A stretch of 64,000 bases of DNA from a virus. Where the stretch lies: positions 1 to 64,000 of IMG/VR virus record IMGVR_UViG_3300047564_005433. One strand, given 5' to 3'. A program made the translations under genes and the position numbers. Numbering within the stretch: the stretch's first letter is position 1; the number at the start of each line of letters is the position of its first letter. This document shows positions 3,420 through 32,272 of the stretch, one piece after another. The notes under the pieces are model-generated. The model had not been told where the DNA came from. It did no database searches and worked only from the letters and a program-made list of their open reading frames with translations.

Positions 3420-3779
3420 ATGAGCGTCTACTCCCTGCAACCAACAAAGCTCTGCCAGCTTTGCAACGAAGCAAAGCCTTTCGTAGCCTTTCCTTCTCAG
3501 CCTCGTAATCGCGACCGTCTCGACTCCCGCTGTCGCACTTGCATTAACCAGCACCAATCTCTTCGCTCTCGCCTGAAACGACAATTCCCTGCCCCTCCTC
3601 CAGGGCCTTGCCCAATCTGTCAAAAACATACTGAACGCTGGGTGTTAGATCATTGCCACAATACAGACGCCTTCAGAGGTTATATTTGCTCCTCTTGTAA
3701 TCTTGGCCTAGGACATTTCGATGATTCGCCCGCCATGGTAAAAGCAGCTCTTGATTATTTGCTAAGTATAAATACTTAG
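3420..3779 (+). CDS. Endonuclease VII-family (HNH-type) nuclease with N-terminal zinc finger
   Basis: CPIC...LDHCHNTDAFRGYICSSCNLGLGHFDD matches the Endo VII pattern; N-terminal CxxC..CxxC. Confidence 0.85.
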   Translation: MSVYSLQPTKLCQLCNEAKPFVAFPSQPRNRDRLDSRCRTCINQHQSLRSRLKRQFPAPPPGPCPICQKHTERWVLDHCHNTDAFRGYICSSCNLGLGHFDDSPAMVKAALDYLLSINT

Positions 3780-6173: not shown

Positions 6174-6436
6174 CAGAGAGGCCTGCCTAGATGTTCAATG
6201 GTTTCAATGCGAACAGTCCTATCAATGGTGAGAGTACCAATCAAGCCAATTAAACTCCCCTCGTCCATTGAAAAAGCTTGTTCTGCAAGGATACCCCATG
6301 CTTCACAAGGCACTGGAGTGGTTTTAGAGCCCCTGGCAATAACGATGTCAAAGGAAGCATGAGCAGAGCCATTGGGAGGCTCTTGATAATGAATGGGGCC
6401 AAGACGGCCAATAAGCGTCATTTGCCTGCTCATCAA
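6173..6436 (-). CDS. SSB/PriB-like OB-fold protein
   Basis: TLIGRLG...VPCEAWGILAE...EGSLIGLIGTL pattern of the SSB fold; lacks the acidic tail. Confidence 0.65.
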   Translation of the reverse strand: MMSRQMTLIGRLGPIHYQEPPNGSAHASFDIVIARGSKTTPVPCEAWGILAEQAFSMDEGSLIGLIGTLTIDRTVRIETIEHLGRPL

Positions 6437-9641: not shown

Positions 9642-9710
9642 GAGGCGCGAACGAGGGAACAATACAAAAGAAAGGGGCCTGATGGCCCCTTTGTCACAAA
9701 GCTTTACAAA
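9642..9710 (-). promoter_or_regulatory. Early promoter module 5
   Basis: GTCACAAA-GC-TTTACAAA 9693-9710, hairpin, TATTGT 9659-9664. Confidence 0.7.
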
Positions 9711-9895
9711 GACAAAAGTCGCTTGATGTCGCGCTCCACATTCTTCAAGCTGTGTCTGTCTGTCGTGCTTTTGCTGCAGACCAGCATTTTGCCAGAAGAA
9801 TGCTTAAAAACATAATGCTTTGTTTGTCTATGCAAAACAAAGCCATGCTTTTTAACAAGCGCAAACAATTCTCGTCTATTGTCCTTGAGAGCCAT
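9704..9895 (-). CDS. HicA-like small basic protein
   Basis: LVKKHGFVLHRQTKHYVFKHSSGKMLV resembles the HicA fold; no HicB neighbour. Confidence 0.55.
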   Translation of the reverse strand: MALKDNRRELFALVKKHGFVLHRQTKHYVFKHSSGKMLVCSKSTTDRHSLKNVERDIKRLLSL

Positions 9896-10125
9896 TAAGC
9901 GTCGCCAGCAAGTATTTGGCCAATTTCTGTTTCTGGGCCATCGCTGTAAACGAGGCAATTAGATTTCCAGGACAAAGGATTTTTACCTTCTCCCACCTCT
10001 TCCGACCAGATAGAAGGACGTTCGTTGGAGACTATTTCATTGGCGAAATCCTCCGCTTCGCAACTGTCTTCAGCCCAAACATAGGCTTGGTAGTTAATTT
10101 CAACAACGTACAGTTTCTTTTCCAT
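9895..10125 (-). CDS. Hypothetical acidic protein
   Basis: Translationally coupled ORF. Confidence 0.6.
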   Translation of the reverse strand: MEKKLYVVEINYQAYVWAEDSCEAEDFANEIVSNERPSIWSEEVGEGKNPLSWKSNCLVYSDGPETEIGQILAGDA

Positions 10126-10127
10126 GA

Positions 10128-10334
10128 TCAAAGCACCTTCCAAATGTCATCTTGCAAAGCGTCTGCAAGCGTGATTAGCAAGTCTTTCTTGCTTTTATAA
10201 GCGGGCTTATTAACGCGGGAAAGAATAAAAGAGCGAGCAGAAGAACGATCATTGGAGCTGTAATCTTGCCATTTGTGCTTGGCATTGTCAGAAACCATTT
10301 TGGCAATGGCTTGTTGCGTTTTGGTGAGAGGCAT
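10128..10334 (-). CDS. Hypothetical protein
   Basis: 68-aa ORF in operon. Confidence 0.6.
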   Translation of the reverse strand: MPLTKTQQAIAKMVSDNAKHKWQDYSSNDRSSARSFILSRVNKPAYKSKKDLLITLADALQDDIWKVL

Positions 10335-10337
10335 GGT

Positions 10338-10544
10338 TCAAAGATTTCGGGAGTGGATGTAAATAGACAAGCTTTTAATTTTGCCTTCTAACTTGCCAAT
10401 GTAATTAAACAGGCGCTCAAGCATCACGCCGTCTTCTTCCATTAGCTCTTCTGCTACTGGTCGCCCTTCGGGGAGCAAATACCGAGAAAACAGCACCCTG
10501 TCTCTGTTTGACATGCGTGGTTTGTTTTTACGAAAGAAGCGCAT
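10338..10544 (-). CDS. Hypothetical protein
   Basis: 68-aa ORF in operon. Confidence 0.55.
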   Translation of the reverse strand: MRFFRKNKPRMSNRDRVLFSRYLLPEGRPVAEELMEEDGVMLERLFNYIGKLEGKIKSLSIYIHSRNL

Positions 10545-10547
10545 TGT

Positions 10548-10826
10548 TCAGAAGACGAGGGTTTGTCCATTGGCTTTGATGCTTGTCACGCGCTCACAAT
10601 CAAACGAACGCCAAGCACCTTCCCCTTCTTTACGAGCGATGGAGAAATCACGACAACGGACAATGCTGGGCTTTTTGATTACCGTGCCAGTGCCCTTGAT
10701 TTCCTTGGTGTCCCAGGGATTGAACTGGAGCTTGCGCAGGGAACCGTCTGCCTTAACGAATTCCACTGAAACAATGCTGTGGCCAGCATTGAAGATGAAC
10801 TGTTTAATGCGGGAGGTTTTGTCCAT
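10548..10826 (-). CDS. WYL/SH3-like beta-barrel protein
   Basis: VEFVKADGSLRK...AWRSFDCERV pattern. Confidence 0.65.
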   Translation of the reverse strand: MDKTSRIKQFIFNAGHSIVSVEFVKADGSLRKLQFNPWDTKEIKGTGTVIKKPSIVRCRDFSIARKEGEGAWRSFDCERVTSIKANGQTLVF

Positions 10827-11102
10827 GAGGAGCTGTCGCCAGCGAAGGAACGAGGAAGAAAGAAAGGGGGAGCCTCTTGCGAAGCTCCTTTCCGATCGAC
10901 CGAAGGAACTATAGGCTCAACTGAGCGGGGCTGTCAAGCCTTGGTACGGGGAAGCCGTTGGCAATGCGGCAGTAGCGCTCAGGATGCAGGAGCATGCACT
11001 TCTCCAAGCCTTCCTTGTTGGGCAGCACGTTAGGGGAAGCTGCAATGGCAAAGGCACCTAGACCAAAGATGAGGCTTACGAGCAGGAAGGAAGCGGTGTC
11101 TT

Positions 11103-11459
11103 TCATAGCTTTGAAATGCAAACGTTTGTAACGCCTTGCGAGGGGCGGGCAATACGAGAGAAAGCGCCGATGGAAAGATCGAGAATGCGCCCTCCGTAGA
11201 ATGGCCCGCGATCTGAGACGGTCAACACCACTTGCTTTCCATTGTCACGGTTCTTAACAAGAAGCTTCGTGCCAAATGGAAGCCATGGATGGGCGGCGAT
11301 CATTGCTTGGGGATTCATGGGGCGACCATTGGCCATTGTCTGCCAGGCGTAGCCATCACCATGCCCTCCATAGAAGCTTGCTTCACCACATTGGAGCGTT
11401 GCTGCTTGCGCCTGGAGAGGGCATAGCAGCAGGAGAGAAAAAAGGAAACGTTTCATCAA
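11103..11459 (-). CDS. rlpA: RlpA-like double-psi beta-barrel lytic transglycosylase with signal peptide
   Basis: ASFYG, MANG, AAHPWLPFGT, DRGPFYGGRILDLS; hydrophobic N-terminus. Confidence 0.9.
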   Translation of the reverse strand: MMKRFLFSLLLLCPLQAQAATLQCGEASFYGGHGDGYAWQTMANGRPMNPQAMIAAHPWLPFGTKLLVKNRDNGKQVVLTVSDRGPFYGGRILDLSIGAFSRIARPSQGVTNVCISKL

Positions 11460-11569
11460 TTAGTACGAAAGAACTAGCGAGGGCCATGCCGTCTCCGACA
11501 AGGCAGCCCCTATTGTGCCATGAAACTGCTCGTTGCTGCCGAACGGACTTGGCGTGTTATGCTTTTGAA

Positions 11570-11780
11570 GCACTCGGCCCTAGCGGCTTAATTGCTGCTC
11601 TCGTCTTCGGGCGAGCCGTGAGGATGGGCGTTTCTGATGATGCGGGCGAAGATCGAACGATCTAGCCAAGGAGTTTTTGCATGGTCTCCTGCGAGGCGCA
11701 TCATCTCCCTACGCAACTGATGGGAAACAGAAAAATCGGAGGGTGTAAAGAGAAGGGGCCGCAAGGCCCTTTTTCTTTTG
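11570..11780 (+). ncRNA. Candidate structured small RNA of about 200 nt
   Basis: Extended -10 TGtTATGCT 11555-11563; C-UUCG-G hairpin 11600-11615; 9-bp stem 11636-44/11697-705; terminator about 11754-11778. Confidence 0.55.
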
Positions 11781-11826
11781 CCAATACAAAGCCAGTTAGA
11801 CTCAGGCAATACAAGATCAGCCGATC

Positions 11827-11994
11827 ATGAAGCTTTCTGCAGAGCAGGAAAGAGAAAGGCTTAAACGATGGATGGCAAGCGGGGAAGTTTATGACCCTCG
11901 CAACGAAGAAGATTTTGACACTTGGTCCGTAGGGATGGAGCCTCTTCCTGGTGATACAACGTGGGCAAAGAAAAAGCCCCTTGAGGGGCTTTAG
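11827..11994 (+). CDS. Small hypothetical protein (MKLSAEQERE...)
   Basis: 55-aa ORF translated by hand, ending in a terminator hairpin. Confidence 0.5.
   Translation: MKLSAEQERERLKRWMASGEVYDPRNEEDFDTWSVGMEPLPGDTTWAKKKPLEGL
11971..11992. terminator. Intrinsic terminator, probably bidirectional
   Basis: AAAAAGCCCC-TTGA-GGGGCTTT between convergent genes. Confidence 0.7.
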
Positions 11995-12061
11995 CAGGAT
12001 TCTTGATAAATGGCGTTTATTGGAAATCCTGATAATTGACGAGGGCTCTCAGTGGGTCTGA

Positions 12062-12280
12062 CTACTGGTCTTCAAGCTCATCAGCGATGGCGAGTAAGTC
12101 GTCCGCGTCGCACTGCCATATGTCGTGGCCAGGATGCCTCTGCGTATGGGCTACAGCAGCACGAAGGGCGGCGGCAGCAATGTCCCTAGAGTCATTTAGG
12201 ATGTCATCTGGGCCATAGCAGCAAGCGCCATTGGCGGCATCCAACACAGCTTGGGCAGCAGGTGAAAGTTGTTGAGTCAT
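12062..12280 (-). CDS. Cassette gene, paralog of 12782-13030
   Basis: LSPAAQAV..IAAAALRA..LLAIADELE. Confidence 0.7.
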   Translation of the reverse strand: MTQQLSPAAQAVLDAANGACCYGPDDILNDSRDIAAAALRAAVAHTQRHPGHDIWQCDADDLLAIADELEDQ

Positions 12281-12292
12281 TAGTTGATCGGA

Positions 12293-12763
12293 CTAAGAGG
12301 GCTGGGGCAAAGCGTTGGCGGGGAGCCAGTGGGAAAAGCCCAGCCATTGGACAGAAGGCAACACGTGTTGAGTTGGTACTAAATACCAAGATTCCCAAAT
12401 GTCGTCGTCTTCCGGGTTGTACTGGTGAAAACCCCAACACCTCCCTTCTTCATCGCAATCTTCCGGTCCTGGCAGGCGCTCGCTCACTGGGATGGACTGA
12501 GTTGAACTATCTGGAGATCCCGGATGGTTGCCCCAGCGAGCAAGGACAGCACGGGCATAGGCACGCCAGCTTTCGGGCTCACCGCTCTGGTCGATCTCGG
12601 TGAACAGCTCGTCAAGAGCCTCATCAGTCGGCTCCTCCGGCTCAGGCTCAGCCAGGGCGTCGCGGACACGCAGCATTAGGGGAGACAAGTGCATCCGATC
12701 TGTGGGAATACCGCTATCAATAGCGTCAACCAACTCAGCGCACAGTCGTTTGTAATCGGTCAT
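12293..12763 (-). CDS. Cassette gene, mosaic protein with DUF551-like C-terminus
   Basis: IPVSERLP...SHWLP motifs. Confidence 0.7.
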   Translation of the reverse strand: MTDYKRLCAELVDAIDSGIPTDRMHLSPLMLRVRDALAEPEPEEPTDEALDELFTEIDQSGEPESWRAYARAVLARWGNHPGSPDSSTQSIPVSERLPGPEDCDEEGRCWGFHQYNPEDDDIWESWYLVPTQHVLPSVQWLGFSHWLPANALPQPS

Positions 12764-12781
12764 GGTGTTAAGTGAGGTGGA

Positions 12782-13030
12782 CTACTGGGCATAAAGCTCA
12801 TCAGCAATAGAAAGAAGTTGCTGACGGCATTTTTGTCTTGTGTCCCGCTCAAGCTGCCAACGCTCATCAAGAAAGTGAAGCGGCTCTTCTGGAACTATTT
12901 GATCTGCAACAGCACGTAAAACAGCGGCTGCAATCTCTTCAGCTTGGCAAGGATAGTCGTCTGGATCAAAAGAGCTGACATAAAGGGCAGCTTTTGCTAC
13001 TGCTTGTGCAGCAAGTGAAAGTTGAGACAT
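12782..13030 (-). CDS. Cassette gene, paralog of 12062-12280
   Basis: LSLAAQAV..IAAAVLRA..LLSIADELY. Confidence 0.7.
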   Translation of the reverse strand: MSQLSLAAQAVAKAALYVSSFDPDDYPCQAEEIAAAVLRAVADQIVPEEPLHFLDERWQLERDTRQKCRQQLLSIADELYAQ

Positions 13031-13044
13031 AGAAGTGATGTTGA

Positions 13045-13383
13045 CTACTCGGGCAGGGATTCAAGAGCTGTCTTGATGGTTTCAAGGTCTTGGTGAAACT
13101 CTCTGGTGTCATCAGCGCCTGTGGCTATGGCATAGAGAGCACCCAGCGCCTGCTCCTTCAAGCTCGGCGGCTTGGTGCGGCGGGCGGTGCGGAGACCCCG
13201 GCTTAAAGTTTCCCAGTGATCTGCAACTAGCAACTCACAGCACGCCTCCAGCTCCTGATCAGCGCCAGCCTGGTAAGCCTGAACAAACAAAGAGTCAACA
13301 TCAGCGCCCATGGCTAGAGCCTGTTTGCACCAGGCATCAACCTGCCACTGCGGCGGAGTAATCGGATGGTTTTTGTCAGTCAT
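13045..13383 (-). CDS. Cassette gene, hypothetical protein
   Basis: HPITPP..GADQELEACC..PSLKEQAL; start at MTDKNHP. Confidence 0.7.
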   Translation of the reverse strand: MTDKNHPITPPQWQVDAWCKQALAMGADVDSLFVQAYQAGADQELEACCELLVADHWETLSRGLRTARRTKPPSLKEQALGALYAIATGADDTREFHQDLETIKTALESLPE

Positions 13384-14078
13384 GAGAAAGAGAAGTGTGT
13401 AGAAATTGGCAATTTGGCTAGATGGAAGTGATGAGACGATAGCGCTTGAGGATTTCCTCTTGCTCTTTATCTCGCCAGTATTGAAGCCTACGCTCAAGCC
13501 TTGCCGTGGCAAGTTGCATTACGCTTCGCTTGTCATGGTCCCAATCAAGCAATGGATCAGAATTGCTGGCCAAAGAGCTGCTCGTAGGCATGAGAGATAG
13601 CGCGAAATTTCCTAAGATGATGATCCCTATCTTTCGCCAACAATTCCGCGAGATCTTTAACGAGCTGGTCGCCATTGTCATTGTCAAAGTATTCAAAAAT
13701 AGCGTCCGTAAGTGTGTCTTTGGGCGTGCTCACAGTTTGCCTCCTTTAATGGCATTGTTGTAGTTCATCAGATATTCTTCAAAATCAGCGCCAGTGGGAG
13801 CTTCTTTACAAAGCTCTTCATGGTTCTCCTTGAGCATTTCCAAGCTCACAACAAATGCACAACGAATGCGATTCAAAGCAAGTTGTTGCACGAGATTGGG
13901 CTCTTCATCAATAGCCTTTTCAATGGTGCAAATGTATTCCTGCAGATCAGTCATGGCAAAGCTGCGCGTCACCATTGGCTGACCAAAGCTCATGGCAAGC
14001 TCGTTGTCCTTAAAAGCAGAAACGGGATGGTTCGGCAGCAGGTGATTGAAAGAGACGGTCACGATGGAAAAGCGGAGG

Positions 14079-14161
14079 GCTAGCGACGTTCGCCGTCGCA
14101 TGGCCATAGTATGCCATCAAAAAGGCCCCCATCAAGGGGGCCGTTCATAAATCGTTACAAA
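14079..14161 (-). promoter_or_regulatory. Early promoter module 6
   Basis: TTCATAAA-TC-GTTACAAA 14144-14161, GGCCCCC/GGGGGCC hairpin, -10-like TACTAT, 5' hairpin GCGACG/CGTCGC. Confidence 0.6.
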
Positions 14162-14577
14162 GCTCGTGCTGGCTTTCGCAAGGCCTGCGTGGCAATGCTC
14201 AAATTCTTAGTGATGGGCAATGGCTTTTCCCTCCACTTGATGGCAATGGCATGGCAAGTGCCCACTGGCATCAGCTCAGCGTGCCTGTAAGCCCTGTCCA
14301 GCAGAATTTGATAGGCCTGGCGTTTTGGTTTGCTCATTGGCCCCTCGGGCTCTTCAATGTTGGTGCGAGCGAAATCAGCCAGCTCCGTGATGTCATCTAG
14401 TTCGTTCGTGGCAATAACAAAATGCCTGCCACGTTGCTGCACCTTTCGCCATGCTGGATGAATGGGAGGGTTTTCCATGGCCAAGGCTTGCGCTTCTTCT
14501 CGGAGTTGAGGAGGAATGCAAATGTGAACCATGCGAGGCAAGGAATGCTCTTCAACCAAGGAGAGCTGATAATCCAT
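14155..14577 (-). CDS. Hypothetical protein
   Basis: 140-aa ORF from MDYQL. Confidence 0.6.
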   Translation of the reverse strand: MDYQLSLVEEHSLPRMVHICIPPQLREEAQALAMENPPIHPAWRKVQQRGRHFVIATNELDDITELADFARTNIEEPEGPMSKPKRQAYQILLDRAYRHAELMPVGTCHAIAIKWREKPLPITKNLSIATQALRKPARAL

Positions 14578-15283
14578 GGTTAGGCGAAACGGAATTGTCC
14601 GAAGCGAAAGGAACGAGAGCCAATGGCAAGGCGACATTCGCCAAAACCATCGTACATAGTGCCAAGAAGAAAGCTATTCCTCCATTGGAAACAAAATCGT
14701 CCTAGGCGGAAATGGCCAGTGGCATCAGTGCAATGGAAAGAGAACGTCATGGGCTGGTTTTGTCTTTAGTGACAGTAGCTTCAATGGCATTAGCAAGCTG
14801 CAGCTTGCTTAAATCAGGAAATTGTTTCGTACTAACACGAATCATTTCCACTGCCGCCAAAATGCCTTCATTCATGGCGTCTTCAGTGACTTTTGCAATC
14901 ACTGCACGCATTGCAGCTTCTTCTATTGGTGTCATTTGTTAATAACAGGAAGTGATTGGCCCAGTGTCTCAAGCCAGCAGAGCATACACCAATGGCCGTT
15001 ATGACCAGGAATCGTACTCACAATGGTATGGGGATGAACACCGTGTTTTGGGCAATCAATTTTGGCAGCTTCAACAACGAGAGTGCTTTTCCACTCTAGG
15101 TCTGTCAATTGTGTCATAACTGTGGATCTTCAGGAAGCGGAGGAATTTCTTCAATGAGAGCAATCTTTACATCGGGGCGCATTGCAAGAAGAAAATGCTC
15201 TGCTTGTTTTGCTGAAATTGCCCCAAGGGCAATTTTCTTCCCTTCTGAAGTGGTAATACAAAACGTACGACAAAGTGAGGCCA

Positions 15284-15730
15284 TTACCAACTTTCCTCCT
15301 CAAGCTCTTCAAGGATGTGTTGACTGAGCGTTTGTTCAAGCATGGGCTTCCATCCGCCGTCGCCTCCAATGCTATTAATTTCTCCCAAGAGATGGAGGGC
15401 ATCAGCAACGCGAGTGGCGTCCATCAGACAGCTACAGGCCATACTCGGCTCCTCGCCAATCAGCTCCTCAAACATGCCAATGTGCAGCTCAAACCATTTA
15501 CCAAGACAGAACAGGGCAATTTGCCTGTAGGTTTCGTCGCCATGCTTTTCGAGCATGGCTTCAATGGTGGCGGCCAGCTTTGGAGGAATGCCTACGGTGC
15601 CATGGTCCTGCAGGCCAGGGGAGATTGAAGAGGCAATAGCTTGACGCTTGCCGTCTTTGGCGGCTACGGCTTGGCGCAGGAAATCGTCAACGGAGGCGAA
15701 TTGATCCAATGCAAGGAAGCGTTTCGTCAA
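15284..15730 (-). CDS. Hypothetical protein
   Basis: 148-aa ORF in the leftward run. Confidence 0.6.
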   Translation of the reverse strand: MTKRFLALDQFASVDDFLRQAVAAKDGKRQAIASSISPGLQDHGTVGIPPKLAATIEAMLEKHGDETYRQIALFCLGKWFELHIGMFEELIGEEPSMACSCLMDATRVADALHLLGEINSIGGDGGWKPMLEQTLSQHILEELEEESW

Positions 15731-15754: not shown

Positions 15755-16510
15755 TCAATAATCATCTTCATTAATTGTTTGTAAAGGCATGGTTTCAGGA
15801 ATGGGCTCACTTTCTGGCTCGGCATCAAAGCTGATGGTCTCAGCAGACGCAAGGAGAGAATTGCCACGTCGTTCTTCCGTAGCCTTCGCTTCCTTCTCCT
15901 TTTCAATGGTGGAAGACAAGTCTTTTAGGAAGGTTCGGTAGGAAGTGTCTTGGTTTTCTACTGGCTTGATTTCGTTCAAGCCCAGCAGCTTTGCTTGTTC
16001 CACCAAGGAGTTTTTGGCCACGTTAAGGAACGAAGCATCACCAGCGCTTTCTTCTATCTTCACCATTTCCTTTCCGCCATCGTCACCGCCGTCCATGATG
16101 GTCACTGTCTTTTTGCGCTTACTGGTTTCAAAGCTTGCCAATGCAAGATCTTTTAGGTCCATTTGCTCTTTCAACAAACGCGCCCGATGAGTGTCTTGAT
16201 TCTTGAGAATCTCTTGCGTGTATAGGTCTCTGTTGAAATGCCTATCTCCATTGACTGTTTCTTTGCTTAGTTTTAGTACATTCGCGATCTGACGATTGCT
16301 CATCTTCGCTGCCAACAATTCTTGCACCATCCATCGCCTTACGCCAAGCATTTCCTTTGTATAAATGCCAGCACCATGCGTGCCGCCCTTTGATTTATGC
16401 TCGCGGATGGTTTCGTATTGCGTAATTGGTACGCCTGCCTTTTCTAAGGCTTTCCTCGCATAAGCTTCTTCTTCTTCAGGCGTGGCGAATTCAATCTCTG
16501 GACGAGGCAT
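15755..16510 (-). CDS. HTH protein, probable terminase small subunit
   Basis: HTH MSNRQIANVLKLSKETV followed by a coiled coil and GDASFL..QAKLLGL. Confidence 0.55.
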   Translation of the reverse strand: MPRPEIEFATPEEEEAYARKALEKAGVPITQYETIREHKSKGGTHGAGIYTKEMLGVRRWMVQELLAAKMSNRQIANVLKLSKETVNGDRHFNRDLYTQEILKNQDTHRARLLKEQMDLKDLALASFETSKRKKTVTIMDGGDDGGKEMVKIEESAGDASFLNVAKNSLVEQAKLLGLNEIKPVENQDTSYRTFLKDLSSTIEKEKEAKATEERRGNSLLASAETISFDAEPESEPIPETMPLQTINEDDY

Positions 16511-17658: not shown

Positions 17659-17913
17659 ATGGCAAGGACAAAAATTGCCAAGCCGAGCGTGACGCTGCTA
17701 AATGGCAGGAGGGCAAGCGTGCCTGAAGAAATGGACTACAAACAGGCCTACTTAGAGATTGTCTCAGTGGTGGCGCCAAGGTTTCCAGAATGCTCCATCT
17801 ATACCGTCGATCTGGTTCGGCTCTTAGCCTTCGAGAACGATACGTTGAGAATGGCGCTGAATTTACCACTGGCCACTAAGGTTGTGGCAGCCATTGAAGA
17901 CGATTTGAATTAA
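17659..17913 (+). CDS. Hypothetical protein
   Basis: 84-aa ORF followed by a terminator at 17921-17944. Confidence 0.55.
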   Translation: MARTKIAKPSVTLLNGRRASVPEEMDYKQAYLEIVSVVAPRFPECSIYTVDLVRLLAFENDTLRMALNLPLATKVVAAIEDDLN

Positions 17914-17943
17914 GCAAAGCAAAGGGGCCATCAGGCCCCTTTT

Positions 17944-20919: not shown

Positions 20920-21107
20920 TGGAAACGCCCAATCTCACCACCTCCGAGTTTTATGCTCGCATGAAGCAAATGGATCTTGATGTGATTGATTGCCTTGATT
21001 CTTTCCTTTTGGATACTGGCGTAGGCGTTGCTGGGCTGCGTCTTTCGTTCAGCAAAGAAAGCGAAGAATATCTTCTTGATTGGCACTTCGTTTTTCCTGA
21101 AGAATGA
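20916..21107 (+). CDS. Hypothetical protein
   Basis: Coupled ORF. Confidence 0.55.
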   Translation: MMETPNLTTSEFYARMKQMDLDVIDCLDSFLLDTGVGVAGLRLSFSKESEEYLLDWHFVFPEE

Positions 21108-22042
21108 ACCACACTATCCTCACCTACTCCCCCTCCGACTTTTTCAGCATGGAAGACTCCGCAAAACAAGCAATGATGGACCGTTACAACGGCGTCTTCT
21201 CCCCCCTAGAGATCAGCGCTGAAGCTTTTAAGGCTGCTTACGACACACCTGACATTGGCCCCCACATTGAAAAGGACTACAAAGGCCTCTCCTATCTGTC
21301 GTGGCCGTTTGCCTTTCGCTATCTGAAGGAGCATTTCCCGACGTTGTTTGTAGCGTTTGAAGAGAAGACCATTGGCTGGCCCGTATTTGGCGAGCCTGGC
21401 GCCTTCATCCTTCGCCCCTATCTCACTGATGGAATCAAGCGCACGCCTGCGCTGGTGTTCCCCATCATGGACCGCAAGCACAATTCCATTCAACAGCTCG
21501 ATGGTCGTGCAATTAGCGACAACATCCAACGTGCCAGTGTCAAAGCCATCGCTACGTTCACGGGCCTTGGTCTTCGGCTCTATGCCGGAGAGGACATTCC
21601 TAAGGAGGAAGCGCCAAAGCTGCAGCAGGACACGCTCAAGACGCCTGCACGCACGAAGAGTGCCGCTAAGGAAAGCACTGCTGCTTCTGGAAGCGAGGGG
21701 CCTGTTGCCGCCGCTGATACAGGGTCCGCTGAACCCTTCGATGCAAAGGCAGCTCTTACGGCAGTGTGCAAAGCCAATCCTTTGAACTATGTCGACGAAA
21801 AAGCTTCTATGGCTGCAGGTAAAGCTGCTCTTGAAAGTATTGGACTTGCTCGCGCCACAGAAATCAAAAGCTGGCAAGCCTTCGGAAACGTCGTCGCAGC
21901 AATGATGACACTATGGGCTAAGCAAGAGCAAATTGTCATCAGCAAAGCTGAAATGACAGAAGAAATCAATGCCGTGCGTGGCCTTGAAGACACCAGTGCC
22001 ATTATTGAGGGGATGAAGGCTTTCGTGGCAAAAAAGAAATAG
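21104..22042 (+). CDS. Sak/Rad52-like single-strand annealing protein (DUF1071-like)
   Basis: LSYLSWPFA, PIMDRKHNSI and QRASVKAIATFTGLGLRLYAGEDIP motifs. Confidence 0.8.
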   Translation: MNHTILTYSPSDFFSMEDSAKQAMMDRYNGVFSPLEISAEAFKAAYDTPDIGPHIEKDYKGLSYLSWPFAFRYLKEHFPTLFVAFEEKTIGWPVFGEPGAFILRPYLTDGIKRTPALVFPIMDRKHNSIQQLDGRAISDNIQRASVKAIATFTGLGLRLYAGEDIPKEEAPKLQQDTLKTPARTKSAAKESTAASGSEGPVAAADTGSAEPFDAKAALTAVCKANPLNYVDEKASMAAGKAALESIGLARATEIKSWQAFGNVVAAMMTLWAKQEQIVISKAEMTEEINAVRGLEDTSAIIEGMKAFVAKKK

Positions 22043-22747: not shown

Positions 22748-23548
22748 GTGGCCTGTTACGATCTATGCCTAGCCTCCCTTCAAATGCAAGCATTTCCCCG
22801 TTACGAACCGAACCGGCTCCAAATTCAAAAGAAGCGTTATTATCATTTGAACGGTTTTCCAAATGTTCCCGAAGGGTATGTTTTGCCCTCTGTGACAACT
22901 ATTGCGAGCGCGTGTTCAGCGCCTGGCAAGATTGCAGCGCTAATGAACTGGCGAAAAAAGGTGGGCAATGAAGAAGCTAATCGTCGCACTCGTAATGCTG
23001 TGGATCGAGGCAATTGGCTTCACGGTGTTCTAGAAGATTTCTGGAATGGTGAAGACATTCAAGAGCATCTTGATTCTCACGAAAACTACGTGCCTTATTT
23101 TGAGAGCATTGTTGGTTTTCTTGAGCGCGTTGATAGTCCATTGCTCGTCGAAAGTGCCATTGCCTGGTACGATCCTGCGCAAGAAATTGGCTATTCAGGC
23201 ACCTTTGATATGCTCGCCAAAATGAACAGCGGGCAATATGCCCTGCTTGATTGGAAGACAAGCTATAAAGAGAAGCCTGATACACAGCTAGCCGACTATC
23301 GCATGCAGCTTGGTGCCTACGTTCAGGCCATTGAGCAGATGTATGACATTGAAGTTAATGAAGCACATTGTGCCATTGCCATCCACGATCCTGATACTGG
23401 CCATTCCCAAGAAGCGCAAATCGTGAGTCTCTCAGCGGGGGAGCTTGCCATGCAGGCGGGCATCATGGTGCAGAAGGTGCAGCAGTTCTTCTTCGAGCAT
23501 TACCCAGGCGGACGCCCCTTAATGATTTCTATGGACCGAGGAGCTTAA
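22748..23548 (+). CDS. PD-(D/E)xK exonuclease
   Basis: PSVTTI, RGNWLH, YSGTFD, LLDWKTS and QLGAY motifs. Confidence 0.85.
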   Translation: MACYDLCLASLQMQAFPRYEPNRLQIQKKRYYHLNGFPNVPEGYVLPSVTTIASACSAPGKIAALMNWRKKVGNEEANRRTRNAVDRGNWLHGVLEDFWNGEDIQEHLDSHENYVPYFESIVGFLERVDSPLLVESAIAWYDPAQEIGYSGTFDMLAKMNSGQYALLDWKTSYKEKPDTQLADYRMQLGAYVQAIEQMYDIEVNEAHCAIAIHDPDTGHSQEAQIVSLSAGELAMQAGIMVQKVQQFFFEHYPGGRPLMISMDRGA

Positions 23549-24540
23549 CGATGGCTATTGAACACACGTTTAACTCAGTACAGCAGCGCAATCTCATCGA
23601 ACCACTTGCCGTTTATTTTGCTGGCAAAGTTCGGAAAGGAATGCAAGATTACAGGGCAATCCTGTTCCACGACGACAGGATAATGTCACGAGTTGTAAAG
23701 AGCGAACTGAAAATCTTTAACCAGCTTCCCAGGGAGTGCCCGGCAGGGACCGTTATTTATGCGGGACCGAGCGCTTTATCTTGCGACCATGGATGCTGGC
23801 ACGACAAGAAATACGAGATTGGCGCAAATCATGGCATAGTTAATCCCTGGGGGCCGCGTAAAGATTTATCTTTTCCCGATGGAGGATCAATCCATGTTGG
23901 ACGCGAATGGTTATCCTACTTTCAGCAAAAAACTGACTGTCCCAACGGAAGCAACGGGCTCTCAAAAGCACAAGCTGTAGAACGTTGCTTGTATCAAATT
24001 AGGATGTGCGATGCTCTTTACGCATACATAGATGAACTCGATTGTTATGGTACTATTTCCGAAATTGGCTACGCATATGCACTGGGAATTCCAATTTACA
24101 TTGTCTTTGACGACAAACTAAAGAATGCTTGTGATGAATACGAAGATTCGGGCGGACATGGAAAATACCAAGTTGCACGCAATGATTTTTGGTTTATTGC
24201 AGAAATGGCCACACAATGCGCGTGGGGGAAGCCATGGGAATTAATACATGAGATTGCGTTTTCAAGGCAAAAAGATAGTAAATTCTCAAAAGCAAAAAGG
24301 GTTGGAATTAGGCCTAAAGATCGAGTGGTAGTACTTGTTCGCGATCAATACACTTGCCAGATGTGTGGTGTATCCAGGGCAGACGGAGCAGTTCTTGAGA
24401 TTGATCACATTCATCCAGTATCCAAAGGTGGCACTAACACTCTTTCGAATTTGCAAGTACTATGCCGCGAGTGCAACGCTGGCAAAAGCGACCACGTTTT
24501 ACCCATGCCTTAACAATTTCTATGGACCGAGGCGCTTGAC
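23517..24540 (+). mobile_element. Inserted HNH element flanked by 33-bp imperfect direct repeats
   Basis: 23517-23549 vs 24508-24540, 4 mismatches; duplicates the last codons of the exonuclease gene. Confidence 0.75.
23551..24513 (+). CDS. Nucleoside deoxyribosyltransferase-like domain fused to HNH endonuclease
   Basis: CDALYA..DCYGTISEIGYAYALGIP; RDQYTCQMCG..EIDHIHPVSKGGTN..NLQVLCRECNAGK. Confidence 0.8.
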   Translation: MAIEHTFNSVQQRNLIEPLAVYFAGKVRKGMQDYRAILFHDDRIMSRVVKSELKIFNQLPRECPAGTVIYAGPSALSCDHGCWHDKKYEIGANHGIVNPWGPRKDLSFPDGGSIHVGREWLSYFQQKTDCPNGSNGLSKAQAVERCLYQIRMCDALYAYIDELDCYGTISEIGYAYALGIPIYIVFDDKLKNACDEYEDSGGHGKYQVARNDFWFIAEMATQCAWGKPWELIHEIAFSRQKDSKFSKAKRVGIRPKDRVVVLVRDQYTCQMCGVSRADGAVLEIDHIHPVSKGGTNTLSNLQVLCRECNAGKSDHVLPMP

Positions 24541-26746: not shown

Positions 26747-27450
26747 TGGCCAAGATTGATCCGCTGATGGATGGCATCAGCTTCGTGCGTCTCATTGATT
26801 GGATGGGAAGCTCGCTTGACATTGTTTGTGATGCCAGGCAAAGCTTTGATCAAAGCAGCAGCGAATGGTCCGAAAAGGATCAAAAGCTTCTTAACTATCT
26901 AGTGCAGCACAAACACACTAGTCCGTTTCGTGGCGTGGTCACAAAATGGCAAGTGAAAGCTCCGCTGTATGTTTGTAGGCAATGGTGGAAGCATGTTATT
27001 GGCGGGACGTTCGCTAATGACACGCTTGGCTGGAACGAGAAGAGCTTTCGCTATTGCGAAGCTGATGATGAGGCCTACTACATGCCTCGCGAATTCAGAC
27101 AGCAAAGCTCCAGCAACAAACAAGCCTCTAGTGGGCCTCTGGAGCCCAGTATGAACCAAGTGGCAATGATTGAATATGCCAAGGCTCTTGAGCAGGCAAA
27201 GCAAGCTTACAGGGCGCTGCTGACGCTAGGTGTGGCGAAGGAACAAGCCAGGGGCATTTTGCCAATGGCGACTTTTTCTACTTTTACATGGACCTGCAGT
27301 CTCCAGGCCCTCCTGCACTTTGTTTCATTGCGTGACAGCCCCGACAGTCAAGGGGAAATCCAAGCCTATGCTCAGGCCATGGTAGTATTGGCGCGTCCTC
27401 TTTTCAAAGAAGCATTCGAAGCATTTGAAAGCCATGGCAGCACCTTCTAA
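26743..27450 (+). CDS. thyX: FAD-dependent thymidylate synthase
   Basis: HTSPF, RQWWKH, NEKSFRY, EQARGILP, LRDSPDSQGEI. Confidence 0.92.
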   Translation: MMAKIDPLMDGISFVRLIDWMGSSLDIVCDARQSFDQSSSEWSEKDQKLLNYLVQHKHTSPFRGVVTKWQVKAPLYVCRQWWKHVIGGTFANDTLGWNEKSFRYCEADDEAYYMPREFRQQSSSNKQASSGPLEPSMNQVAMIEYAKALEQAKQAYRALLTLGVAKEQARGILPMATFSTFTWTCSLQALLHFVSLRDSPDSQGEIQAYAQAMVVLARPLFKEAFEAFESHGSTF

Positions 27451-27985
27451 AATTGTCAATCCCCGACCTTGGGCAGTGCCATTCCCGCGTGCATTCAATG
27501 CCGGAGAAGGCACTCTTTACGAACGCTTTTCTTCGTATGTTTACAGGAAGAAAGACCATGAATGCTGGCCTTGGGTGGGCGCCATCACCCATGCGACTGG
27601 ATACGGGCAAATTACTGAATGGCGAGACAACAAGCGCGTAAGTCGGAGGGCACATCGCTTGGCATGGGAATTTTGCTTTGGCCCAATACCAGGCGAACTA
27701 CTTGTTCGGCACATGTGTCACAATCGAGCCTGCTGCAATCCAACACATCTTCTTCTCGGTACAGCTAAAGATAATTTCGATGACAAAATCAGGGCAAAAC
27801 GCGAAGGTAATTCGGTGATGCTTAAAGGCGAAGACAATGTAAACTCTAAGCTTACGGAGGCAGAGGTAATGGAGATTCGGGCGACCAACGGCAAAACAGT
27901 TCGCCAAATGGCGAAAGAATATGGTGTAAGCAAAACTTTGATTAGCGCAGTTCGCTGCAATAAGGCTTGGAAATCCTTCATCTAA
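27425..27985 (+). CDS. HNH homing endonuclease
   Basis: CWPW, AHRLAW, VRHMCHNRACCNPTHL..GT..DN; C-terminal HTH. Confidence 0.85.
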   Translation: MKAMAAPSKIVNPRPWAVPFPRAFNAGEGTLYERFSSYVYRKKDHECWPWVGAITHATGYGQITEWRDNKRVSRRAHRLAWEFCFGPIPGELLVRHMCHNRACCNPTHLLLGTAKDNFDDKIRAKREGNSVMLKGEDNVNSKLTEAEVMEIRATNGKTVRQMAKEYGVSKTLISAVRCNKAWKSFI

Positions 27986-28002: not shown

Positions 28003-28350
28003 ATGACTGACGCTGTGAATCATCCCCGTCATTACGCTAAAAATGGCGGCATTGAATGTATTGAGGCCATTGAAGCTTCAATGGACAAAGACGATTTCCG
28101 TGGCTTCCTCAAAGGGAACATTCAAAAATATGTTTGGCGTTATGAAGAAAAAAATGGCCTAGAAGATTTGAAGAAGGCCAGTTGGTATCTTGATCTTCTC
28201 ATCTTCAATATAGAAAGCGAGCCGCAACAAGAAGCCGTTGAAGCCCTTGAGAATGCTTCTATGGAATGCAAAGATGGATTCTGTCCAATGCCTGGAATTC
28301 GCTATGACCTTCCTGGAAAGCAAATCACTTTTGCCCCAGTAGAAGGCTAA
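28003..28350 (+). CDS. DUF3310-family protein
   Basis: [37 protein letters not shown]. Confidence 0.85.
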
Positions 28351-28829
28351 GCAGCACTACAACAAAGCCCCCACAAGGGGGCTTTTTCATGCTCAATTTT
28401 TTGGTGCATCGGCAGGACAATCCCTTTCTTTTCGCACCACTCCTCAAGATGCTTTTGGTCAGTGTGAGCGCTAACAAAGCTATTGCAATACACCCACGCC
28501 ATCACAATTTCCTCTCGTTGCTCCGTCCAAAAAGGTTGCACTCGCCACCATTCAAGCATCGGCAAGTCTCCCTTCTTGAGATTACAGCTCTTACATGCCG
28601 GAAGCATGTTCCAGCGCGAGAAGTGTGGGCCGCCTTTGCTCTTGGGAACAATGTGATCAATCGTAAGCTTTTCTCCCCATTCTCCGCAATAAGCGCAAGC
28701 GCATTGCCCAAATGGTCCCCTCAAAAAATAGTCTTCAAAAATACTCTTACGGAATCTACGTTTTGCATCACCAGGGCGAAGTTCAATGAGAGAATAAAGC
28801 AGCTCATCAGGACCATTCGCTCTAAGCAT
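28347..28829 (-). CDS. HNH endonuclease
   Basis: [31 protein letters not shown]. Confidence 0.85.
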
Positions 28830-30856: not shown

Positions 30857-32080
30857 TTAAGTGATTTCCACCCAGCCGATCATGCCAAGTGCTTTAGCGC
30901 TGACTGCACTATCGACGGTCAAGATGAGAGTGTCGCTTTCGCCAGAAGCATTTTGCCCTAGGGCAAGACGAATGGCCACTGCAATGTCGTAATTATTCGC
31001 ACTGCCTTGACTGACAAAACCTGCGTCAACCACTGTGCCGCCTGTGGCAGTACCACTAGTTGTCACTTCCACATTGCCCCTTTGATTGTCCGCAGCACTC
31101 CAAGTGACGTCACTCAGTGTTGGATTTAAACGCAAACGCCACAACACCACATCACTAGAAGCAGTGGCAGTAGAAATTCTTACGGGGAGAATAACATTAC
31201 CAGTGCGACCACTTGCCATGCGAATACCAGCGGTGATGCGCTCCCCAGATGTATTTGGAACAGTGCTTAAATCGTGATTCACTGAATACACGGCGCCATC
31301 TGGCTCATATCCCCCCTCGCTAAGAATGCTGCTACAAATTTGCTTCATGGTGCGTCCTGAAGCTTGAGCGGAAGCATTGTGAATGCGATAGGACAATGGC
31401 AAAATAGCCGTTGTCATATATGCGCTAGTCAGTGTGTTGTAGTGATTGAATTCATGGCAATAAATGATCTCGCCGTTAATTACAAAGCCAGTCCTCACTC
31501 GCCCCACGCCAAGCCATTCAAGATCGGCAGTGAAAATCTGAGCTTTAGAGAAGTCGAGCGAATCAAGAGTGTTAATGTTCCACGCTGATTGATCAACTAC
31601 GTTTTCAACAACTGCGCCAGACGTGAAGCTTCTGATGACCATTTGCAACGTAGTACCACTTGCCCTAATCATCACTCCATTCTGGTCATCAAAGAAGCCC
31701 ACTTCTTGAATGAGACCTGCTGTTGGAGTGGTGCCAGCGAAGCTTTGCATGATCATCATGCTTTTTCCTGGTTGGTACGGGAAGTATTGCTTAGTTCTAC
31801 GCAGCACTGTATCGCCAGACGCAGTGGTGGTCGTCAAAGCAGTGCTGCTTTCGTTTGTTAAATACGTGACCACGCCTCCATTGGACACGCGATCAAACCA
31901 TTGGTCAGCACGCTTGTTGTAACGCATCGTGCTATCAAAAAGCGTATAGGGAGCGCTCGTGCGAGCACGCCCAAAAGCATCAACTGCTCCACTATCAGGG
32001 CCTGTCTTTAAAATCTGCCCGCGATAATCAGATTGAATGTGAGTTTCAAACTGTTCGCCCCCAGCAATTATTTGTCCCAT
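30857..32080 (-). CDS. Putative virion structural protein (beta-sandwich/lectin-like)
   Basis: DAFGRAR, YQPGKS, EWLGVGRVR motifs; Thr/Ser-rich. Confidence 0.6.
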   Translation of the reverse strand: MGQIIAGGEQFETHIQSDYRGQILKTGPDSGAVDAFGRARTSAPYTLFDSTMRYNKRADQWFDRVSNGGVVTYLTNESSTALTTTTASGDTVLRRTKQYFPYQPGKSMMIMQSFAGTTPTAGLIQEVGFFDDQNGVMIRASGTTLQMVIRSFTSGAVVENVVDQSAWNINTLDSLDFSKAQIFTADLEWLGVGRVRTGFVINGEIIYCHEFNHYNTLTSAYMTTAILPLSYRIHNASAQASGRTMKQICSSILSEGGYEPDGAVYSVNHDLSTVPNTSGERITAGIRMASGRTGNVILPVRISTATASSDVVLWRLRLNPTLSDVTWSAADNQRGNVEVTTSGTATGGTVVDAGFVSQGSANNYDIAVAIRLALGQNASGESDTLILTVDSAVSAKALGMIGWVEIT

Positions 32081-32140
32081 GGAAAAGAATGCTTTCTTTC
32101 ATTGTACTAGCAAAAGAAAAGAGGCCTTTCGGCCTCTTGA

Positions 32141-32272
32141 TTATTTGCCTTGTCCTCGCGGAAGCTTTCGACCGTGCGAAGCTTTACTATTTGCTCCATT
32201 GCCTTGGCGCGTGCGCTTGCTTTTATTTGGCTGATGAAGCTTTTGCCCGTTAATGGTTTTGCTTGATGCCAT
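32141..32272 (-). CDS. Small basic protein ending RGQGK
   Basis: 43 aa, translated by hand; KRTRQG..RGQGK pattern seen in cyanophages. Confidence 0.6.
   Translation of the reverse strand: MASSKTINGQKLHQPNKSKRTRQGNGANSKASHGRKLPRGQGK

Follow-up and report, generated by a model that had tools for sequence, protein, structure and literature searches.

Position-specific stop-codon linkers lie at gene-replacement breakpoints in a small-gene island of freshwater Synechococcus-type phages

Results

Organization of the gene array

The DNA analyzed here is the first 64 kb (the window) of IMG/VR record IMGVR_UViG_3300047564_005433, a viral genome of 73,391 bp that has direct terminal repeats and is rated complete. 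Four successive genes on the minus strand of the window, A, P1, X and P2 (12062–13383), each end in a TAG stop codon that lies within the motif TAGT-N7-ACT, as a sequence-only reading of the window had noticed. We call these stop-containing units linkers and number them J1 to J4. The same linker words were found in dozens of contigs of uncultured cyanophages, base for base, between unrelated genes and in the same order, and breakpoints of gene gain, loss and replacement fall at them.

Gene A (13045–13383; minus strand, like all features of the array) encodes a predicted all-helical protein of 112 amino acids in the family phrog_32006 and is the steadiest member of the array. Its stop lies in J1 (13033–13047, TAGTCAACATCACTT). 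P1 (12782–13030, 82 amino acids) occupies the slot between J1 and J2 and ends in J2 (12770–12784, TAGTCCACCTCACTT). Gene X (12293–12763, 156 amino acids) ends in J3 (12281–12295, TAGTCCGATCAACTA), which abuts the ATG of P2 (12062–12280). The latter fills the slot from J3 to J4 and encodes a 72-residue protein of a family marked by the peptide LSPAAQAV, predicted to consist of three helices. Its stop lies in J4 (12050–12064, TAGTCAGACCCACTG), with which the array ends and which forms the right edge of a variable island. The earlier description of closely spaced starts held: from the end of the 15-mer to the next ATG there are 2 nt at J1, 6 nt at J2 and none at J3, and no gene follows J4. The proposal that two of the genes are diverged paralogs was confirmed for P1 and P2, which share 41% identity (E = 2e-6).

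The sequence at 13406–13420, which had been taken for a degenerate fifth copy of the motif, is not an instance of it. It consists of the stop of the backbone gene U (13418–13420) plus 12 nt and forms the left edge of the variable island; in the relative L100, the equivalent place reads TAACCAATGGACACT. The actual fifth linker, J5, lies next to it, upstream of A, at 13393–13404 (TTCTACACACTT), and lacks its stop codon. This remnant and the adjoining positions 13384–13392 (CTCTTTCTC) make up the leader of A. In relatives, J5 reads TAG(T/A)TCTACACACT, followed by the same leader as in the window.

In the window, TAGT-N7-ACT has seven matches, counting both strands, at five places, compared with 2.92 ± 1.96 in 100 shuffled sequences, of which four reached at least seven. 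Of these five places, four are clustered on one strand within 1 kb, every one at a stop. The whole 73,391-bp genome holds the motif at six places, none of them, apart from the array, at the stop of a called open reading frame (ORF), so the earlier impression that other early-gene stops lack it was correct. TAG is the rarest stop codon, used by 23 of 105 mechanically called ORFs. The two places outside the array were looked at individually. The first, at 34524–34538, is a perfect palindrome with 4-bp arms (TAGTGGAGAACACTA) inside a tail-fiber ORF (33967–36414); the same word occurs in L167, and it reads as coding sequence, not as a linker. The second, on the minus strand at 66047–66061, beyond the window, is a J4-like word (TAGTCAGGGGCACTT) following 44 open codons, with no array there.

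The sites had been described as symmetric inverted repeats. This was correct to the extent that AGT/ACT forms a 3-bp dyad in three sites and TAGT/ACTA a 4-bp dyad in J3, but the common consensus is the asymmetric TAGTC-N5-CACT. The conserved bases 5 and 11 are both C and not complementary, and natural variants break the dyad without compensation (TAGA..., TAAC..., TAAT..., ...CCCT, ...CATT, ...CGCT and ...CACC). Variants of J2 in relatives read TAGACCACCTCACT and ATGTCCACCTCACT. Motif enrichment was measured in 163 loci, L010–L172 among them, comprising 1.37 Mb, with ORFs and gene families called mechanically. On the gene strand, TAGTC-N5-CACT was present in 49 distinct contexts, and in 38 of these it followed 40 or more open codons; the opposite strand had six contexts, and eight control patterns gave zero to six. 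The sites were restricted to a single array per genome: in G001, four of four lie within 2.6 kb, in G003 five of six within 1.3 kb and in G005 four of four within 2.6 kb. A genome thus has four or five sites in one island, each with a different center, and not one consensus repeated throughout the genome. At L040 8244–8258, two convergent ORFs appear to share a palindromic site (TAGTGAAGGTGACTA / TAGTCACCTTCACTA), each arm of which gives one stop, one of them ending a 590-codon frame.

Linker words recur between unrelated genes

Relatives were collected by searching viral contigs with X (best 80 of 110 relatives) and with P1 (three relatives), and by an alignment search with the A protein (best 80 of 583 relatives; 622 matched stretches). 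The stop codon is TGA in 63 of the 80 X relatives, where it usually overlaps the next start, TAG in nine and TAA in eight. In only six of the 80 does the stop coincide with the J3 word, and different genes follow it. The rarity of J3 among X relatives indicates that the words belong to a subclade and not to whole gene families.

With flanking genes grouped by single-linkage BLASTP, which puts A, P and X in a single family and therefore gives counts that are too low, J1 was found in 12 distinct contexts with one upstream family (always A) and seven downstream families, J3 in 12 (three upstream, four downstream), J4 in nine (four and seven) and the word TAGTCATTACCACT in seven (six and two). J5 occurred in six distinct contexts as TAGTTCTACACACT and in six as TAGATCTACACACT, while TAGTCACCTTCACT occurred in five and TAGTCGCTTCCACT in four. 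When the loci were aligned with the words as anchors, the words were identical at 14 of 14 bases and similarity dropped abruptly at base 1, base 14 or both. Among 223 pairs of contexts sharing a linker word, both 40-nt flanks were alike in just 13 (5.8%) and neither in 83 (37%). For comparison, of 15,199 pairs from these loci that had some other 14-mer in common, 46.6% were alike in both flanks and 10% in neither. Of the pairs alike on one side, 21 of 127 had at least 90% identity over 150 nt on the shared side and chance-level identity (0.19–0.30) on the other, suggesting that these are recent events. These tests replaced a first ranking of 14-mer islands, which was led by words encoding conserved P and A peptides and placed J3 low.

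A search that did not depend on any gene, with the exact 18-mer formed by J3 and ATG, retrieved 29 viral contigs. Eight named families lie upstream of the word (some contigs had no callable upstream ORF) and nine downstream. In 14 of the 29 contigs, the gene after the word terminates in J4, irrespective of its family. The same arrangement was also retrieved from contigs with different dataset numbers, in nine pairs.

Among cultured Synechococcus phages, the A family (phrog_32006) occurs in S-RIP1 (31851–32192), S-H1 (643–990) and S-CBS2 (49881–50144), which are an Autographiviridae podovirus, a 39-kb phage and a siphovirus, respectively. Its presence in such dissimilar phages suggests that small genes move between unrelated backbones. 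Only S-H1, of these three, has a J1-like linker (TAGGAAACATCACTT) after its A gene. The S-CBS4 region compared has no array, the end of P2 together with J4 had no match among cultured phages, and the TAGTCATTACCACT leader matched the A-gene start only. The 11 loci found in bacterial genomes all come from metagenome bins whose taxa are mixed, Cyanobium and Synechococcus among them, and are uninformative about host or prophage state.

That the pattern reflects chance, local paralogy or chimeric metagenome assembly is hardly credible. Paralogy of P1 and P2 could have duplicated the flanks of two of the four sites, the pattern was chosen after seeing the data, and most relatives are assemblies. 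These points are set against the enrichment and strand bias in the 163 loci, the 29 contigs found by the exact word alone, the nine agreeing contig pairs and the J1-like linker in the isolate S-H1. In addition, the words are shorter than usual assembly k-mers, which counts against an assembly artefact.

A second stereotyped junction was seen in the same material. The word ATGACTGA is the commonest first 8-mer of ORFs in L010–L172 (165 of 2191 distinct ORFs) and also the commonest 8-nt overlap of stop and start (70 of 121 overlaps at -8). Copies in the window lie at 12278–12285, 12756–12763 and 13376–13383. About a quarter (26%) of locus ORFs start with MT, and unrelated families start with MTD, MTE or MTQ. 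This junction may play the same linker role in GC-richer relatives that are without TAGTC words.

Similarity breaks at the linkers

The sequence-only reading had proposed aligning related cyanophage contigs to see where they break. In these alignments, breakpoints of gene gain, loss and replacement do fall at the motif. The locus L093 is identical to the window at 371 of 371 positions from 13404 to 13034, that is, from J5 just after the stop position to the last base of the J1 14-mer, and is unrelated to it on both sides. L094 is identical at 250 of 250 positions, also from 13404, but the identity ends within A at 13155. The backbone relatives L100 (≈87% identity), L150 and L123 match the window up to 13414–13420 and again from 12067–12094, with different genes in between; in L100, similarity returns exactly at the TAG of J4. 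This pattern of match and loss delimits the array as a hypervariable island, with the stop of gene U and J4 as its edges. Logan contigs from other freshwater runs part from the window sequence at 12051, 12283, 12782/12784 and 13403.

In the vertically related backbones, J4 has drifted by one or two of its 14 bases (TAGTCAAGCCCACT, TAGTCAGACCCGCT and TAATCAGACCCACT). Since J4 drifts like the rest of the backbone, exact identity of a word in foreign contexts points to recent transfer rather than deep conservation.

What look like footprints of exchange are present at several junctions. A word is preceded by a TAGTAG doublet at L100 4571, L186/L205, L163 1685 and L144 4591, J3 lies intact 10 nt past a TAA stop in L093 (4527) and L094 (5046), and L090 has at 6247 what is possibly a J3/J4 hybrid word (TAGTCCGACCCACT).

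Genes bracketed by two words formed 36 distinct units. The slot from J3 to J4 holds three unrelated families (the P type, MKLEIKL... and MPMANSRL...), the slot from J1 to J3 four gene families and that from J2 to J3 three. Conversely, the P family sits in several different slots, and the same gene family is found with different downstream words. The order of the words on the gene strand was strictly J5, J1, J2, J3, J4: among 78 ordered pairs from distinct arrays there was no reversal, and J3 was duplicated (J3–J3) once. A second set of words (K1, K3 and K4 before K2) showed the same ordered behavior. These comparisons suggest that heterospecific linkers form an ordered scaffold whose contents can be exchanged.

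Expression setting of the junctions

The four genes had been called promoterless, and indeed no promoter-like site was found at the four junctions by a simple consensus scan, from which cyanobacterial promoters may differ. No terminator-like site was found at these junctions; the region itself lies between terminator-like hairpins. Two other RNA-level explanations were examined and rejected. An RNA hairpin at the junctions would have a minimum free energy of -1.3 to -6.7 kcal/mol with z about 0, no better than shuffled sequences. Read-through of TAG into the next gene would find the ATG in frame at J2 and J3, but out of frame at J1 and at the commonest leader (ACTTCTATG).

A Shine–Dalgarno-like tetramer precedes only 26 of the 108 ATG-started ORFs of the genome, and leaders of early genes are typically rich in C and A, ending in ...ACC ATG. 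The linkers presumably couple termination of one gene to initiation of the next, which has no Shine–Dalgarno sequence. Re-initiation coupled to termination would need just such a unit, in which a stop codon is followed by about 11 unstructured, G-poor bases and a short leader up to the ATG. A coupling role would explain the strand specificity, the inclusion of the stop within the unit and the fact that TAG was kept in L093 and L094, where the upstream ORF ends 10 nt earlier.

These features might seem to be enough if the words were expression signals or pieces of untranslated region that travel with one neighbor, while joints form illegitimately and at random and selection keeps the stop–linker–start geometry. 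In line with this, J1 is always found with gene A, TAGTCATTACCACT and its leader are nearly always found with a downstream A gene, and genes without a Shine–Dalgarno sequence plausibly need a nearby upstream stop. Ragged joints also exist: J5 of the window has no TAG, J3 lies 10 nt past a TAA in L093 and L094, and there are the TAGTAG doublets. However, J3 and J4 each occur as complete 14-mers next to several unrelated genes, upstream as well as downstream, one pair of words can enclose three to four unrelated genes, and random joints would leave many more ragged edges than were seen. Moreover, other gene junctions of these genomes lack the sites, which therefore do not serve as a general expression signal. 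We therefore regard this explanation as unlikely.

Products of the array genes

None of A, P1, P2 and X had a match in Pfam, and PHROGs gave only phrog_32006, of unknown function, for A. In the Atlas, X had a DUF551 lead at 0.85, and the clusters of A were all labeled hypothetical. AlphaFold models of A and P2, with pLDDT scores of 81.9 and 78.9, respectively, were both helical bundles. Neither model had a match in the PDB at E ≤ 0.001, and they gave no sign of a nuclease, recombinase or helix–turn–helix fold, nor did they exclude one.

The X protein has an N-terminal module ending in ...ARWG and a C-terminal module with the weak DUF551 lead. In L020 and L021 the N-terminal module is a separate ORF that ends in ...ARWGK/Q and is followed by J3. 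Relatives of X (L113, L201, L210, L211, L020 and L021) end in ...ARWGN(H/R)PGSPDSSTQPS* or ...ARWGK* directly before J3, while in the window the DUF551-like module sits before the final ...QPS*. By sequence comparison, X of the window looks like an in-frame fusion, and this pattern suggests that there is mosaicism at the sub-gene level, too.

Genome context and recombination genes

The genome carries head and tail genes together with genes for ribonucleotide reductase, ThyX, dCTP deaminase, a primase/helicase and an endolysin. It also encodes a Sak-like single-stranded DNA-annealing protein (21104–22042, plus strand) and an exonuclease (22748–23548, plus strand), both assigned with PHROGs, several HNH endonucleases and one tyrosine integrase. 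At the DNA level, the window has cultured relatives only among Synechococcus siphophages, the main one being S-CBS4, with 71% identity over 9% of a 6-kb query. The sequencing runs compared that contain the region are labeled as freshwater or lake-water metagenomes.

Among the nucleotide-metabolism genes there are three HNH endonuclease-like ORFs and one endonuclease VII-like ORF (23551–24513, 27425–27985, 28347–28829 and 3420–3779; PHROGs), scattered in a pattern typical of free-standing homing endonucleases. An ORF of 251 amino acids at 15755–16510 has a weak GerE/helix–turn–helix match and may be an early regulator; its PHROG label, "Rnase E", looks doubtful. Many genes of the window are followed at their 3' side by near-identical G+C-rich hairpins of the type GGGGCC(N4–5)GGCCCC with T tracts (for example, at 11973–11992, 14124–14142, 9704–9720 and 17900–17930), which appear to be a repeated family of terminators. 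The sole Rfam match within 10000–15500, ctRNA_p42d at 11751–11781, reached 29.7 bits, below the gathering score of 50, and falls on a terminator hairpin away from the linkers.

The tyrosine recombinase (PF00589, 32650–33504) lies 19 kb from the array, beside the tail genes. The sequence-only reading had proposed that this enzyme serves the sites and that the array is an integron-like set of gene cassettes. As a description, a cassette array with very short sites fits the data, as breakpoints fall at the motif; as a mechanism, an integron-like system does not. Among eight site-bearing genomes at least 90% complete, only three had PF00589 above the cut-off: G000, G001 and, marginally, G009. It was absent from G002, G003, G006 and G010, and G007 scored 11.9 bits, below the cut-off. 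G003, which has no PF00589 protein, carries the fullest array, with five sites, and G002 (85 kb, with terminal repeats) is likewise without one. A homolog of the integrase of the window was found in one of five relatives tested.

The idea that the 15-bp sites are core sites at which the phage tyrosine recombinase excises and inserts cassettes is in our view very improbable, even though the genes between the sites are single, small and promoterless, breakpoints of gain, loss and replacement coincide with the sites, the phage has a PF00589 protein, its relative G001 has one that is 83% identical, and some sites have a weak TAGT...ACTA dyad. Core sites of tyrosine recombinases have inverted arms of about 9–13 bp around a spacer of 6–8 bp. 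The arms here are only TAGT and ACT(A), unlike cores of the lox, FRT or dif type; the dyad of 3–4 bp is broken by variants, and the consensus is asymmetric and strand-specific. Integron attC sites are about 57–141 bp long, with an extended imperfect palindrome and a GTTRRRY core. The linkers do not resemble such an imperfect inverted repeat of tens of base pairs with conserved cores, being units of 14–15 nt with the short dyad and no stable fold. No IntI-type recombinase adjoins the array, as the sole PF00589 gene has the distant position of an ordinary phage integrase. In an integron, each cassette carries its own site and the order reflects the history of insertion. Here, gene and site are unlinked, the same pair of words brackets three to four gene families, and the order was fixed at 78 to 0, which insertion at one attI-like site would not yield. 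In addition, many breakpoints are intragenic. The array thus resembles an integron in being a series of single, promoterless, co-oriented small genes of highly variable content with a short site at each stop, but differs from one in the lack of an adjacent IntI-type recombinase, the 15-bp sites, the independence of site and gene and the fixed order. The integron-like reading is largely refuted by co-occurrence and order.

Discussion

The words, their strand bias, their position at stops, the recurrence with unrelated neighbors, the sharp breaks of similarity at the edges and the fixed order are established, as is the lack of a co-occurring tyrosine recombinase. On balance, we are inclined to read the linkers as stop-to-start units of a promoterless early operon that double as short stretches of homology for gene exchange between colinear arrays. 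Each unit would consist of a TAG stop, about 11 unstructured bases rich in C and A and poor in G (consensus TAGTC-N5-CACT), a leader of 0–13 nt and an ATG. The units sit in a hypervariable island of small genes common to many otherwise unrelated freshwater and estuarine Synechococcus-type phages, with each position having its own word, J5, J1, J2, J3 and J4, in fixed order.

Co-infecting or successive phages with the same word could then recombine there by an exchange dependent on homology or microhomology, carried out by general recombination functions of the phage or the host. The Sak-like protein and the exonuclease are candidate catalysts. The gene between two linkers would be replaced while stop, spacing and start stay intact. 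As neighboring linkers differ in their centers, internal deletion would be disfavored and the order kept. Many events may use the word together with a conserved gene end or leader, giving about 30–36 nt of homology, and contexts that differ on both sides would require rare short-homology events or successive steps. We infer that the exchange is driven by homology rather than by enzymatic site specificity.

Several points weigh against this interpretation. The minimal efficient pairing segments are given as 31–34 bp for RecA and 23–27 bp for Red-beta in PMC3945230; 14 identical bases fall short of both minima. Homology alone also leaves the shared TAGTC and CACT ends and the near-constant TAG stop unexplained. 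A homolog of the Sak-like protein of the window was found in one of 10 other genomes examined, so that it is no dedicated partner, and among the site-bearing genomes examined no single recombination gene co-occurs with the arrays. Many breaks of similarity are intragenic, for example within A at 13143–13148, 13155 and 13266, and within X at 12503, 12553, 12556 and 12627. The linkers thus appear from the alignments to be preferred but not exclusive points of exchange. Finally, nearly all of the evidence comes from metagenome assemblies with mechanical ORF calls, and, apart from the J3–ATG word search, the loci were fetched via A, P1 or X, so that the sample is biased to such arrays.

The shared ends lead to another possibility, namely that a dedicated site-specific or site-targeted enzyme, from the host, encoded in the array (such as A) or a phage HNH nuclease that makes breaks, acts on the TAGTC and CACT ends, where it would cleave or exchange strands. 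We consider such an enzyme improbable, and equally so the corollary that the 5–7-nt center is an address that sets which slot pairs with which. All words share their ends and length, for which homology alone has no need. Crossovers in the shared ends would carry intact words into new contexts, as was observed, and similarity halts exactly at base 1 or 14 in many pairs; the TAGTAG doublets and the possible hybrid TAGTCCGACCCACT could be added to this list. On the other hand, no candidate enzyme co-occurs with the arrays in the genomes examined, the ends vary in natural copies, breakpoints are also found within genes, and strict colinearity suits ordinary homologous exchange. If an enzyme were nevertheless responsible, phages with unrelated backbones would have in common a natural system of cassette exchange whose 14-bp sites also contain a stop codon.

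If the linkers do act as short homology in exchange, the locus bears on a debate that has continued since the modular theory, namely whether mosaic joints are random and then selected or are made at short shared linkers. As a natural data set on the linker view it is unusually clean and makes the question directly testable, and it suggests how neighboring linkers with different centers may keep the order of an array while its contents turn over. The words are also a practical handle for finding fast-evolving islands of accessory genes of picocyanobacterial phages in metagenomes.

Comparison with known systems

In the open-access literature searched, no paper contained any of four linker 14-mers and none described such linkers in cyanophages. 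Related arrangements have been described elsewhere. On the reading favored here, the linkers would be a miniature, heterospecific counterpart of the modular shuffling known in T4-like and lambdoid phages. Heterospecific lox or FRT sites have common ends and different centers, and each recombines only with its own kind, which is the basis of cassette exchange. The linkers are similar in logic only, in that a segment between two different sites could be swapped without loss or inversion; their arms are 3–5 bp, with no recombinase assigned, whereas lox and FRT have 13-bp arms and a known recombinase.

A "linker" model of modular phage evolution is said to have been put forward by Botstein in 1980, and Clark et al. 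reportedly described conserved boundary sequences in lambdoid phages in 2001. Like the linkers of the modular theory, the words are short sequences at the same relative position in genomes that lack similarity on at least one flank. As in that theory and in lambdoid phages, interchangeable modules lie in a colinear scaffold, and the phage of the window has a Sak-like protein and an exonuclease. Unlike the lambdoid boundary sequences, the linkers are 14 nt long, hold a stop codon, separate single small genes and span unrelated backbones. Relaxed recombination by Rad52-like phage recombinases is the subject of De Paepe et al. (2014; PMC3945230).

Mycobacteriophages offer further parallels. Cluster A phages have stoperators, which are short repeated sites (PMC9283540). 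Cluster O phages have 17-bp dyad repeats, few if any of which are involved in insertions; a 17-bp direct repeat flanks gene 14 of Corndog; and Cluster K phages have start-associated sequences (PMC4351075). These are short conserved words near stop or start codons, oriented with transcription, like the linkers, and the Corndog repeat flanks a gene present in one phage only. The mycobacteriophage sites differ from the linkers in being one consensus, repeated about 30 times per genome and presumed or shown to bind protein, whereas the phages described here have four or five different words in one island.

The closest described system is that of the PeSL (promoter-early stem-loop) elements of T4-type phages. 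Reaching from the stop of one small gene to the start of the next, these conserved units are concentrated in hyperplastic regions of ORFans, whose insertion, deletion and replacement they mediate by recombination (Arbiol et al. 2010, PMC2839356; Comeau et al. 2014, PMC4122927). A PeSL comprises a sigma-70-type promoter, a stem–loop terminator and a Shine–Dalgarno sequence; PeSLs recombine within a genome and form mini-circles, and they are read as points of homologous exchange between otherwise unrelated sequences (PMC2839356; PMC4122927). With PeSLs, the linkers share the location between stop and start of ORFans in a hyperplastic region, at the breakpoints of indels and replacements. They differ in being only 14–15 nt long, several-fold shorter, and in having no promoter, stem–loop or Shine–Dalgarno sequence. 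And whereas the PeSL units within a genome are alike, the linkers are position-specific, heterospecific and ordered.

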